A stretch of DNA of 24,292 nucleotides from Bacteroidia bacterium (GTDB lineage: Bacteria > Bacteroidota > Bacteroidia > Bacteroidales > VadinHA17). The notes beneath the pieces are model-generated. The model worked only from the letters and a program-made list of their open reading frames with translations. It made no database searches and was not told the origin of the DNA. The first letter of the stretch is position 1. The number at the start of each line of letters is the position of its first letter. Shown here in pieces: positions 11,160 to 23,500 of this stretch. The stretch is from contig JAPLDX010000009.1 of the NCBI GenBank assembly GCA_026391215.1, forward strand, positions 1-24,292, in the 5' to 3' direction. The translations under genes were made by a program, and so were the position numbers.

Positions 11160-11235
11160 CATTCGCCTGTTTTAATCCCAGAACTTCATTCGCCTTTTAT
11201 ACCCCCCACCCATTCCGTCTTTTATACCCCCCACC
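11160..11235. repeat. Degenerate ~24-27-bp tandem repeat leading into the family A left arm
   Basis: CATTCGCCTGTTTTAATCCCA (11160), CATTCGCCTTTTATACCCCCCACC (11187), CATTCCGTCTTTTATACCCCCCACC (11211). Confidence 0.6.
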
Positions 11236-11253
11236 CCCCCGGAAGGGGGGCTA
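11226..11253. repeat. Family A left arm (A1-L)
   Basis: ACCCCCCACCCCCCCGGAAGGGGGGCTA; same layout as the arms at 14924, 17238 and 23390. Confidence 0.85.
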
Positions 11254-11334
11254 TAAACCTATACATAATAATTATAGCTAGTATAAGATTTAAGAAATAA
11301 GGATTTAAACATTTACTAACTAAAAGAAATTCAG

Positions 11335-11342
11335 TATATTTG
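11335..11342 (+). promoter_or_regulatory. Bacteroidetes -7 promoter box (TATATTTG) for the DUF559 gene
   Basis: TAnnTTTG match 23 bp upstream of ATG 11366, inside the repeat-bounded segment. Confidence 0.5.
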
Positions 11343-11365
11343 AATAGTTCGCTGCATGTTATATA

Positions 11366-11764
11366 ATGAGATCAAGAGTTATAGAAAGAAATATGTTCTA
11401 TGGTGCTAATCGTAATATTTTTGATAAAGCCCATGAATTAAGGAATAATATGACTTATGCAGAAAAAATCATGTGGGATGAGTTGAAAAACAAAAGAATT
11501 TTTAAAGTCAGATTTCGAAGACAACATCCAATTGATATTTTTATAGTTGATTTCTATTGTCATGAAATTAAACTTGCTATTGAAATAGATGGTGAAGTTC
11601 ATCTAAAAAAGGAAGTGATTGAATATGATGATGGCAGAGCTCATGATATTGAGAAATTTGGAATTAAAATACTCAGGTTTACTAATGATCAGGTATTTAA
11701 TCATCGCTCAGGAATTATTAAAGAAATCCTAATAACCATTAATCAACTGATTTCTAGTAAATAA
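11366..11764 (+). CDS. DUF559 / Vsr-like PD-(D/E)XK endonuclease domain protein
   Basis: A.ELRNNMT.AE..MW, FRRQHPI..FIVDFYC, LAIEIDG.VH, D..R, G..ILRFTN; visibly more AT-rich than its neighbours. Confidence 0.9.
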   Translation: MRSRVIERNMFYGANRNIFDKAHELRNNMTYAEKIMWDELKNKRIFKVRFRRQHPIDIFIVDFYCHEIKLAIEIDGEVHLKKEVIEYDDGRAHDIEKFGIKILRFTNDQVFNHRSGIIKEILITINQLISSK

Positions 11765-11800
11765 TGTCACAAAATCTTATTAAATCATGGATTGGGTTTC

Positions 11801-21800: not shown

Positions 21801-22266
21801 AAGCAGTGTTGTTTCCGGACTTTCTCAGCAGGAAATAGTCTCATTTGAAGCAAATAAATCGCATTCGTTCAGTATAAATGAACAGCAGATAACACTTACC
21901 ATTGAAGATGTCGAGATCATTTCCGAAGACATCCCGGGATGGCAGGTAGCCAATGAAGGCAGACTAACAGTTGCCCTCGATATTACAGTTACTGATGAGC
22001 TTCGTTATGAAGGCATTGCAAGGGAGTTCGTTAACCGTATTCAGAACATCCGCAAGGAGAACGGTTATGACGTAACTGATAAAATAACAGTTCAGATTGA
22101 GGATCACGAATTTGTCCATGAAGCGATAAAAAGGCATGCAGCTTATATTGGTTCGCAAACCCTGGCGACCTCGGTCTCTTTGGCGGCATTAGTAAAAAGT
22201 TCTGGCTCCAGGGAGGTTGAAATTGATGAAGTCGTTATAAAAATACTTGTTAATAAGGCTGGTTGA
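18826..22266 (+). CDS. ileS: Isoleucine--tRNA ligase (long, type 2-like)
   Basis: EGPPSANG.PGIHH, GWDTHGLP, AWTTTPWTLPSN, GTGIVH, DWNLSRSRFWGTP, DVWFDSG, EGVDQTRGWF, KMSKR. Confidence 0.97.
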   Translation: MGKRFPEYKTLDLSKINKDILKIWDENDTFRKSVREIDGKGEFVFYEGPPSANGIPGIHHVMARTIKDTICRYKTQCGYEVKRKAGWDTHGLPIELGVEKALGITKEDIGTEKISIIDFNKACRRDVMRYTDQWEDLTRKMGYWLNMDHPYLTYDNRYIETLWWLLKQLYTKGFLYQGYTIQPYSPAAGTGLSSHELNLPGCYKDVKDTTCIALFQLIRDEKSEFLFNHNDTPSVHIMAWTTTPWTLPSNTALAVGKEIKYIKVRSFNPYSGEPITVILAKDLLHSLFPEANGGIHFSEYKPGDKKVPYKVIDEFPGSKLEGINYEQLIDWVKPDKGAFRVLTGDFVTTEDGTGIVHIAPTFGADDYKIAKEYNVPPMILKRKDGSMGPMVDKKGYMIPISDLDDKFVKERVNFNTYSVFAGRPVKNEYDESLSENTDTLDVDIAVMLKLSGKAFRIEKQVHSYPHCWRTDKPVLYYPLDAWFIRTTAFRERLIELNNTINWKPQSTGSGRFGKWLENLVDWNLSRSRFWGTPLPIWITEDRKEEKCIGSAEELKAEIEKSIKAGFMKKNPLAAFIPGDNTQENYEKFDLHRPFVDEIILISPSGKKMFREPDLIDVWFDSGAMPYAQAHYPFENKENFSDKFPADFIAEGVDQTRGWFFTLHTIAVMTSDSVAFKNIISNGLVLDKNGNKMSKRLKNAVDPFSTIEEYGSDPLRWYMLTNAQPWDNLKFDFAGVDEVKRKFFGTLYNTYSFFALYANVDNFRYNEKDIPINERPEIDRWIISLLNSLVKEVGNCYEDYDLTRAGRAIQDFVTENLSNWYVRLNRKRYWGGDYDQDKIAAYQALYTCLETISMLTAPIAPFYMDMLFRDLSITTGKYKEESVHLTRFPNYDEKLIDKDLEERMDIAQKISSMILGLRRKVSIKVRQPLAKIMIPLPDKTFKKKFEAVKDLVLTEVNVKEVEYIDDTAAILVKKIKPNFKTLGPKYGKLMKEISSVVSGLSQQEIVSFEANKSHSFSINEQQITLTIEDVEIISEDIPGWQVANEGRLTVALDITVTDELRYEGIAREFVNRIQNIRKENGYDVTDKITVQIEDHEFVHEAIKRHAAYIGSQTLATSVSLAALVKSSGSREVEIDEVVIKILVNKAG

Positions 22267-22275
22267 AACCGAAAG

Positions 22276-22409
22276 GGATTGCTTCGTCTTCCCGAGTACT
22301 CGGGAATCCTCGCAATGACGGTATACGCATTTAGTTTGGGCTCAGTTCAACTGTAACAGCATTGAATGTACCGTCATTGCGAACCCGACGAAGGAGGGAG
22401 AAGCAATCT
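22276..22409. repeat. Family B 134-bp inverted doublet (B3)
   Basis: GGATTGCTTCGTC-[TTCCCGAGTACTCGGGAA]-TCCTCGCAATGACGGTA ... TACCGTCATTGCGAA-[CCCGACGAAGGAGGG]-AGAAGCAATCT, 9 bp after the ileS stop. Confidence 0.88.
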
Positions 22410-22460
22410 CACCGACTTTGTACCAATTTTGGTACATTTGTATTAAAATAAGCCTCAGAA

Positions 22461-23390
22461 ATGAAACATATATTAGTTACCGGCGGTGCCGGCTTTATCG
22501 GATCACATCTTTGCGAAAAACTGCTGACTCAGGGCAATGAAGTTATCTGTCTCGACAATTATTTCACCGGTTCAAAAGAGAACATTATACATCTTCTTGA
22601 TGATCATCATTTTGAGGTAATCCGTCACGATATAACTATGCCGGTATTTATTGAAGTTGATGAGATATATAATCTTGCCTGTCCCGCATCGCCTGTGCAC
22701 TACCAGTACAACGGCATCAAGACAATAAAAACCTCAGTGATGGGGGCGATAAATACTCTCGGACTGGCAAAAAGGACTAAAGCCAGGGTACTGCAGGCCT
22801 CAACCAGCGAGATCTATGGTGATCCTTCGGTTCATCCCCAGACTGAAGATTACTGGGGAAATGTCAATACCCTGGGACCGCGGGCATGTTATGATGAAGG
22901 AAAACGGTGTGCCGAAACGCTCTTTATGAATTATCATGTGCAAAACAAAGTCCGGGTAAAGATCGCCAGGATTTTTAATACCTATGGCCCCAGGATGAAT
23001 TCAAATGACGGCAGGGTTGTATCGAATTTCATCGTTCAGGCACTGAAAGGGGAGGATATAACGATCTTTGGCGACGGTACCCACACACGGAGCTTTCAGT
23101 ACATAGATGACCTGGTTGATGGCCTGATAAAGCTCATGAACACCCCCGATAACTTCACCGGACCGGTCAATCTGGGAAATCCTGGAGAAATATCAATCAG
23201 TGAACTGGCAAAGTTGGTCATCCGGATGACAGGTTCAAAGTCAGAAATCACCTATATGCCTCTTCCTGAAGATGATCCGAGGCAGAGGAAGCCGGATATA
23301 AGTCTGGCAATGAGGGAATTGAAATGGCAACCGGTGATAACCCTGGAGAATGGATTGGAAAAGACTATAAAGTACTTTCGGTCTCTTTGA
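22461..23390 (+). CDS. UDP-glucuronate decarboxylase (UDP-xylose synthase) family SDR
   Basis: [72 protein letters not shown] box at 22433-22440. Confidence 0.93.
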
Positions 23391-23500
23391 CCCCCCAACC
23401 CCCCTAAAGGGGGGCTAATTCCAAATTGTTTACAAGACTATTATATATTTGGGATTTAGGCCCCCTTTAGGGGGCAGGACAGCTTTAGCTGGCCGGGGGT
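23390..23500. repeat. Family A 111-bp doublet (A6)
   Basis: ACCCCCCAACCCCCCTAAAGGGGGGCTAATTCCAAAT ... ATTTGGGATTTAGGCCCCCTTTAGGGGGCAGGACAGCTTTAGCTGGCCGGGGGT; the first base is the A of the upstream TGA stop. Confidence 0.87.

Follow-up and report, generated by a model that had tools for sequence, protein, structure and literature searches.

Two small nuclease genes and their apparent partner repeats in a Bacteroidales genome

The 24,292-nucleotide contig JAPLDX010000009.1 of a Bacteroidia bacterium (Bacteroidales, VadinHA17; GenBank assembly GCA_026391215.1), referred to here at its full length as the window, carries two small extra genes between positions 11226 and 23500, one for a 132-residue DUF559 protein and one for a 97-residue GIY-YIG protein, and each lies against a different family of structured repeats. 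The analysis indicates that the window probably holds two nuclease/structured-repeat partnerships, DUF559 with family A and GIY-YIG with family B, in a genome that has a third system of the RAYT/REP type elsewhere. An initial annotation, made from the letters of the window, had proposed a link between each nuclease and a repeat family of its own, in the manner of REP/RAYT but without an HUH enzyme; this core reading is supported and withstood those of the annotation's refuting conditions that were checked. All the elements that it listed were found (DUF559 between inverted arms, four gene-less doublets, a solo arm and three family B doublets), and the two nuclease genes do stand out, as it had claimed, among genes that Pfam and a reading of the neighbourhood identify as mostly housekeeping. 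The assembly (G000) measures 3.39 Mb in 135 contigs and is 98.9% complete, and the window is the whole of its contig C88.

DUF559 genes between folded arms

The DUF559 gene (11366-11764, plus strand) encodes a Vsr-like nuclease of the PD-(D/E)xK type, which scores 105 bits against PF04480 (cut-off 20.6; E 2.2e-30) and matches PDB entry 3HRL at E 9e-15; residues D62, E73, D75 and H79 are invariant in an alignment of seven DUF559 paralogues. The gene is bounded by two inverted triplex-type arms, recovered by an arm finder, in a cassette of ~605 bp (11226-11830). The left arm (11226-11254, minus strand) consists of C6, a loop, G7, a linker and G6, with the third block facing outward, and the right arm (11800-11830, plus strand) reads C6 TTTA G6 CTT G6 T. 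The outer part of the left arm is partly duplicated as an 18-nt direct copy (CTTTTATACCCCCCACCC), read at 11195-11212 and again at 11219-11236. The cassette also contains TATATTTG (11335-11342), 24 nt ahead of the DUF559 start codon ATG. This sequence fits TAnnTTTG, the -7 promoter motif of Bacteroidetes; if it is that motif, the cassette may have a promoter of its own.

On one strand, a family A arm is made of five to seven C, a loop of 3-5 nt, five to seven G, a linker and a second block of five to seven G, where the linker is either 1-4 nt long or a GC-rich hairpin whose sequence varies among copies while its pairing is kept. The polarity of these arms is absolute. In every doublet the extra G block of both arms points outward and the element reads A-C6...G6-T; 21 of the 22 strict multi-arm loci have the order minus/plus and one has minus/plus/plus, with no other order present. 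The pattern C5-N(3-5)-G5-N(1-4)-G5 has 124 matches in G000 against none for its backwards form, and the same holds in congeners. Strict short-linker arms number 63 in the genome and 0, 0 and 0 in three Markov-simulated genomes. The strict set as a whole comprises 84 arms in 61 loci, while nhmmer at E<=0.01 gives 66 loci of family A. A sister family with ends of the GTACTCACCCCC type, A2, has 86 end-motif matches. Gene-less doublets of the A type are ~115 bp each in the window and ~90-125 bp across the genome. The intergenic placement described in the initial annotation extends to the whole genome, as only five of the 61 strict family A midpoints fall in open reading frames of at least 150 codons although such frames cover 89.6% of it. 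All seven doublets of the window are strongly folded relative to shuffles, with single-strand folding z ranging from -3.8 to -7.2 among doublets of the A type and from -6.5 to -11.1 among those of family B.

The association of the arms with DUF559 is far beyond chance, specific and co-varying. The Pfam model recovers nine DUF559 loci in G000 (seven are intact, the C29 copy contains an in-frame TGA and another is truncated where its contig ends), and triplex-type arms adjoin all nine; at seven of the eight evaluable loci a rule-based finder places minus arm, gene and plus arm in that order within 150 bp. The proteins form four subfamilies, each with a distinct arm sequence: the window and C125 copies have C6/G6 arms; those on C16, C111, C29 and C3 have GTACTCACCCCC...CCCCCTCTCT; those on C109 and C64 have CCTCTCCCC...CCCCTCCC, near the TMECO repeat of Escherichia coli discussed below; and the C38 copy has CCCCTCCTTT...AAAGGAGGGG, a hairpin and then GGGGTGGTTT. 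Because these four nuclease/arm pairs occur within one cell line, host ancestry is no explanation of the match. In relatives, loci of the A2 subfamily have CCCCTCTCT/AGAGAGGGG-type arms in 12 of 12 cases, arms with homopolymer C runs accompany the six loci nearest to the C125 type, and a CCCCTCCTTT arm accompanies the single C38-like locus. Mapped on a tree of 103 proteins, arm type undergoes 26 changes, compared with 48 or more in each of 200 shuffles, a figure that kinship inflates.

The adjacency is also seen more widely in the Bacteroidota. We surveyed the flanks of 80 DUF559 loci from other genomes of this phylum, 73 of them scorable, with windows shifted by 1.4 kb as controls. A flanking inverted-repeat score of at least 30 was reached at 52 of the 73 loci and at one of 140 controls, and correctly oriented generic arms stood on both sides at 28 of 74 loci and at none of 140 controls; the generic finder requires stems of at least 5, and C4-type arms, which are common in Marinilabiliales, go unseen by it.

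These data bear directly on the idea that the adjacency is incidental, in which a RAYT or insertion sequence (IS) moves families A and B, or the repeats are structural RNAs or terminators, and the nucleases are merely nearby. The genome does encode seven Y1_Tnp (RAYT-like) matches, so that the absence of an HUH transposase proposed in the initial annotation stands for families A and B, whose ends none of the seven carries, but not for the genome. One of the seven, cut by a contig end (C93:1-520), has a family A arm ~350 bp downstream and is the sole RAYT-like locus near such an arm, and some doublets lie between convergent genes, where a terminator would be useful. However, each of the six evaluable Y1_Tnp genes is flanked by its own different hairpin repeats, which argues that a RAYT/REP layer co-exists with families A and B and owns neither. 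The only family A minus...plus pair with cargo in the assembly is the window cassette, no transposase lies between such arms, nuclease/repeat adjacency is well above controls, the arm type co-varies with the nuclease subfamily, and no Rfam family reaches threshold in the window. We therefore consider incidental adjacency very improbable. An Rfam scan of the window at E<=1 gave three weak matches of eukaryotic type below threshold, which were dismissed as chance.

The resulting system resembles REPIN/RAYT in its inverted hairpin doublets, its intergenic dispersal, its small cognate enzyme gene flanked by its own repeats and the presence of several enzyme/repeat pairs within one genome; it differs in its enzymes, which are a PD-(D/E)xK Vsr-like protein and a GIY-YIG protein rather than a Y1 HUH transposase, and in the multiple copies of DUF559. 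It also recalls miniature inverted-repeat transposable elements and IS elements, with terminal inverted repeats, gene-less copies that outnumber gene-carrying ones and an internally deleted intermediate, whereas family A has neither a DDE nor any other transposase, lacks target-site duplications and has ends that are themselves folded motifs.

The cassette is a discrete unit, gained or lost from site to site. In the paralogue pairs C29/C3 (93% identity), C16/C111 and C109/C64, homology ends at the outer arm ends and the flanks are unrelated. At the junction between the alpha-2-macroglobulin gene and the gene for a conserved 307-residue protein, where the window cassette lies, it is missing in six of seven evaluable congeners, two of which have gaps of 35 and 59 bp. 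The congener G018 (C4:110500-113500) has a DUF559 cassette with family A arms at this same junction, in the opposite orientation to window 11226-11830, reflecting either an inversion between the arms or an independent insertion. Exact insertion junctions are undefinable in these comparisons because the congeners are only ~75% identical to G000 in DNA. At another locus of G018, a complete cassette precedes a copy in which DUF559 is internally deleted between intact arms, and this copy is an intermediate towards a doublet. The cassette and the gene-less doublets share their inner flanks beside the arms.

The cassette at G000:C125:18156-19614 lies at the 3' end of a permease-like gene ending ...NPVEALRYE*, with a diverged ~48-bp copy of that gene end on its far side; both of its arms fall within an extended DUF559 reading frame with the N-terminus PPNPPEGGL. 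DUF559 proteins are enriched among predicted inversion targets, according to a part of the report by Milman et al. 2023 (PMC9881135). Four public sequencing runs were also searched for an empty allele; all four consist of contigs that are interrupted at the repeat arms. Joints skipping 529-536 bases across DUF559 were assigned to other doublets elsewhere because their shorter side has only 30-34 matching letters, and missing cover over DUF559 in run X6 was dismissed as a sign of gene absence.

The GIY-YIG gene and family B

The GIY-YIG gene (15780-16073, plus strand) encodes a single-domain, Ssn-like protein in which PF01541 (E 4e-17) spans residues 2-78 and no other domain is found. Its NCBIfam match is weak and below cut-off, and its best PDB match is the UPF0213 protein 1ZG2 (E 5e-6). 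Tyr6, Tyr17 and Glu65 correspond to Y6, Y17 and E64, the residues mutated in SsnA. The TGA of the gene overlaps the first bases of a family B doublet at 16066-16218 (z -11.1), in agreement with the initial annotation, which had the gene end inside such a doublet; this doublet is formed by two inverted CGTC-tagged hairpin arms (GTCATTGCGAGGA...GACGAAGCAATC). A second doublet lies at 18570-18722 (z -9.8), and a third, whose right arm is partly degenerate, lies directly 3' of the ileS stop codon at 22270-22414 (z -6.5). Family B doublets in the window are 145-153 bp long, with arms composed of CGTCATTGCGAGGA, an inner GC hairpin and GACGAAGCAATCTTC; in their CGTCATT head and their AATCY tail these arms agree with the Neisseria NTS consensus of Chenal et al. 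2025. Five tagged arms are present in the window.

Of 301 genomes of the order, 87 encode homologues of the GIY-YIG protein at E<=1e-10. Among the 29 best homologue loci outside G000, the tag GTCATT[GCT]C, a motif picked after the data had been seen, lies within 300 bp at 21 and on both sides at 13, and a closed GTCATTxC...GyAATC hairpin lies within 300 bp at 19. The density of tagged hairpins is ~9-fold higher close to the gene (54 in 16.8 kb) than further off (16 in 45.3 kb), and near-canonical NTS forms (GTCATTCC...GGAATC) are found at some homologue loci. The adjacency that the initial annotation had suggested for this nuclease is thus borne out across homologue loci, but within G000 only one of the four family B doublets adjoins a GIY-YIG gene.

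This half of the window fits a system of an already-published kind. As described in a part of the text of Chenal et al. 2025 (PMC11893778), SsnA modulates natural transformation, the NTS-ssnA-NTS element is proposed to be domesticated, and its authors compare it with IS elements and REP/RAYT. Measured against that account, the likeness of the window system to Ssn/SRM includes a single-domain GIY-YIG protein of ~100 residues, a gene that adjoins oriented hairpin repeats having the CGTCATT head and the AATCY tail, local clustering of the repeats, their presence at homologue loci in many genomes, and Tyr6, Tyr17 and Glu64/65. It differs in the hairpin of family B, which at ~40 nt is longer, is bulged, encloses an inner GC hairpin and is arranged as inverted doublets. 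In addition, the repeats here lie only downstream of the gene, the genome has only four doublets, and the SRM pattern is unmatched in the window. We class the GIY-YIG half as a probable Ssn-type system with a longer-hairpin variant repeat because its loci carry tagged repeats, an NTS-like head and tail, and the matching Tyr and Glu residues. By analogy with SsnA, the protein is predicted, on homology and architecture only, to recognise the hairpin on single-stranded DNA and to cleave next to it.

The junction between the SIR2 and flavoprotein genes, where the GIY-YIG gene lies, is a hotspot for structured repeats. Gene and doublet are missing there in 11 of 13 congeners, in two of which just 4-7 bp separate the flanking genes. 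In the two congeners where the GIY-YIG gene is retained, GATTGCTTCG...CGCAATGAC repeats lie 3' of it, and a third congener has repeats of the GATTGCTTCG...CGCAATGAC type without the gene. Depending on the species, the junction is occupied by nothing, by a GIY-YIG gene with B-type repeats, by B-type repeats alone or by a RAYT-type REP doublet. Elsewhere, the same site has A2-type ends, triplex-type arms, or a small reverse-strand open reading frame between G-rich and C-rich inverted runs.

G000 also contains a second NTS-like family, B2, on C9, C61, C97, C98, C123, C125 and C134, with a short form GTCATTCCGAACGAAGTGAGGAATC and a 43-nt partner; a B2-related copy (C42:73912-73937) is found ~170 bp upstream of the second GIY-YIG paralogue of the Ssn-like kind, also on C42. 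A further three small GIY-YIG genes are located immediately 3' of tRNA genes (C82:3460-4003, C70:15900-16400 and C83:10300-10760, next to Leu-TAA, Val-GAC and Arg-CCT, respectively). Beyond each of them the 3' end of the tRNA recurs, its T-loop region interrupted by a GC hairpin. These loci look like a nuclease cassette that targets and rebuilds tRNA genes.

Likeness to BoxC/PIT/TMECO and a possible route of spread

The arms that accompany DUF559 recall a class of bacterial repeats known as BoxC/PIT/TMECO and described as intrastrand triplexes. The TMECO consensus is CCCTCNCCC N3-6 GGGNGAGGG N3 GGGNGAGGG, and K-12 has 23 copies, with five inverted pairs; the authors state that mobility functions were never found near these repeats and link them to local genomic instability (Holder et al. 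2015, PMC4666352). To the extent that the part of that text drawn on here describes them, they share with family A the one-strand order (a C-rich block, a loop of 3-6, the complementary G-rich block, a short further loop and another G-rich block), an intergenic location, frequent inverted pairs ~50-60 bp apart, tens of dispersed copies and the lack of a transposase nearby. Family A differs in having blocks that are homopolymers of 5-7 nt rather than mixed 9-nt sequences, a second loop often replaced by a variable GC hairpin, and a host in the Bacteroidales rather than a proteobacterium; its arms bracket a DUF559 gene, a link absent from the Holder text, and its triplex is putative. The homopolymeric family A arms do not match the TMECO consensus, and only the arms of the C109 and C64 paralogues (CCCCTCCC...GGGAGGGG TTT GGGGAGAGG) come near it.

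In E. coli K-12, TMECO no. 9 (1351204-1351239) lies ~170 bp beyond the 3' end of ycjD, a gene annotated as DUF559. A degenerate triplex motif is situated at the ycjD stop, and a ~48-bp duplicate of the ycjD 3' end lies between this motif and TMECO no. 9 (K-12 1351150-1351830). Given 18 TMECO loci in 4.6 Mb, such closeness is unlikely by chance, a rough estimate being a few in a thousand. The ycjD/TMECO no. 9 region is covered to at least 80% in 3377 of 5426 complete E. coli genomes, and hence is variable. Neither ycjD nor the word "endonuclease" occurs in the text of Holder et al. 2015 (PMC4666352), and the DUF559-repeat link was likewise not found among the article texts searched on DUF559, ycjD, BoxC, intrastrand triplexes and Vsr-like nucleases.

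We tentatively propose, with somewhat less than even confidence, that nucleases of the DUF559/YcjD family are the missing partners of the pan-bacterial BoxC/PIT/TMECO repeats, each subfamily nicking its own folded and possibly triplex arm and thereby propagating cassettes and doublets, as a third repeat-propagating class beside RAYT/REP and Ssn/SRM. On the reading of this genome that we hold to be probable, the gene-less doublets, which have the same two arms in the same polarity, are miniature relatives of the DUF559 cassette. DUF559 would recognise the folded arm as a hairpin, cruciform or triplex and nick it, and host replication or repair might then copy the segment between the two arms. 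Cassettes and doublets would in this way behave as selfish elements, as REPINs do with RAYTs.

Several points weigh against this reading of the two partnerships. For both nucleases activity, binding and movement are predictions, as is a role of either in driving the spread of its repeats. We know of no strand-transfer activity in Vsr-like nucleases, and the copying step is for that reason a conjecture. None of the 21 strict family A doublets has a target-site duplication, as the initial annotation had observed for the window; all 21 are flanked by A...T, complementary bases that lengthen the inverted repeat rather than forming a direct duplication. The C38 locus of G000 has the opposite arm polarity. 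Among 334 asymmetric hairpins the third block follows the mirror rule in 188 and the direct rule in 128, a test of triplex symmetry that is underpowered because the third blocks are mostly G; by eye, A2 and C38-type arms fit the purine-motif mirror rule. Genomes of one order are kin and not independent samples. On the GIY-YIG side, the assembly has only four family B doublets, three of them within 6.3 kb in the window, and of the five small GIY-YIG genes in G000 only the window copy adjoins family B. The published degenerate SRM pattern has no match in the window, 11 unrelated-looking matches in G000 and a match at one of the 29 homologue loci, and the tag by which those loci were scored was chosen post hoc.

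To these is added the presence of arms in genomes where DUF559 was not detected. Arm-pattern matches occur in 22 of 26 relatives with DUF559 and in six of 15 relatives without a detected copy (41 relatives). The congener G006, which is 92% complete, has 125 arm matches and no DUF559 by protein query or Pfam model, and DUF559 was likewise not detected in G320 (44 arm matches) or G013 (15), in a Pfam search of limited sensitivity, as its E. coli control was missed although K-12 has ycjD. Repeats may outlast the loss of their gene, as is described for REPINs. Arms without DUF559 may accordingly reflect persistence after gene loss, or the gene may be dispensable.

The same observation would suit a domesticated host function, in which the nucleases act on the repeats for the cell, by restricting single-stranded DNA that enters it or by recombination at sites marked by the repeats, roles known from SsnA in Neisseria, or by clearing hairpins or triplexes that block replication, while the repeats spread or persist otherwise and the genes sit among their own binding sites by regulation or descent. 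Besides the many arms that G006 retains without detectable DUF559, this is favored by the tight packing of doublets between housekeeping genes, by the role of SsnA in transformation and the domestication proposed for its element in the part of Chenal 2025 (PMC11893778) cited above, and by the tie between TMECO and local genomic instability given in the portion of Holder 2015 (PMC4666352) used here. However, DUF559 is present at nine loci, including the copy with an in-frame stop on C29, a congener has an internally deleted copy, paralogue homology stops exactly at the arms, and both nuclease cassettes are missing at the syntenic sites of most congeners. Multiple copies, decayed copies, arm-bounded homology and empty sites are better fitted by a selfish duplicating unit than by a housekeeping gene, and we regard the host function as unlikely, though worth keeping in view.

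The direction of events could also be reversed. If the doublets came first, DUF559 would cut gene-less doublets and be copied into their centre by repair, in the manner of a homing endonuclease for which the doublets are the targets. The Vsr/DUF559 clade does include a group I intron homing endonuclease (a table in PMC3424549), the inner flanks beside the arms are common to the cassette and the doublets, and doublets far outnumber cassettes. Such homing leaves the multiplication of doublets to ~60 loci unexplained, however, and the arm-bounded DUF559 copy with an internal deletion demonstrates that doublets can form by deletion. Although sequence alone cannot separate homing from propagation of the cassettes by their own nuclease, we judge homing improbable.

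The literature has assigned no function to BoxC/PIT/TMECO, and a specific, co-varying nuclease partner would, if the proposal is true, give these repeats an origin. The partnership would then be testable in E. coli itself, where ycjD lies beside TMECO no. 9, and the layout in which folded repeats flank the gene of their own small enzyme would have arisen with three unrelated folds, HUH, GIY-YIG and PD-(D/E)xK. New from this window and its genome are four cognate DUF559/arm pairs in a single genome, a homopolymer variant whose linker hairpin is replaceable, an absolute rule of polarity and three enzyme/repeat systems side by side. Structure-specific nucleases with programmable recognition of hairpins or triplexes would be of practical interest, as is argued for single-stranded DNA tools in a part of Chenal 2025 (PMC11893778).

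Remaining doublets of the window and their neighbouring genes

The genes between 11226 and 23500 include those for alpha-2-macroglobulin, the conserved 307-residue protein, dnaG, a SIR2 deacetylase, the flavoprotein and a PNPOx-like protein, together with riboflavin synthase, a rhodanese, ileS and an epimerase. The initial annotation had counted four gene-less family A doublets among them; three are of family A, whereas the fourth (12824-12942; z -7.2) belongs to the sister family A2 and not to the C6/G6 family, with ends CATGTACTCACCCCC ... GGGGGGTGAGTGCGTG that are cognate to the DUF559 paralogues on C16, C111, C29 and C3. The first of the three (14923-15036) lies between the start codons of dnaG and SIR2, and its right-arm linker is the hairpin CCAGC TTCA GCTGG. 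A solo family A arm, C6 TTTA G6 AGA G6 TC, is found on the plus strand at 18745-18777.

Repeat ends in the window supply or overlap stop codons. The doublet at 17236-17351 fills the gap between two convergent genes, and the TAA of the upstream reading frame, that of the PNPOx-like protein, falls within its left arm (GGCTAA; 17236-17265). At the last family A doublet (23388-23504; z -6.3), the epimerase gene stops within the first bases of the repeat, its TGA being that of TGACCCCCC at 23388-23390.

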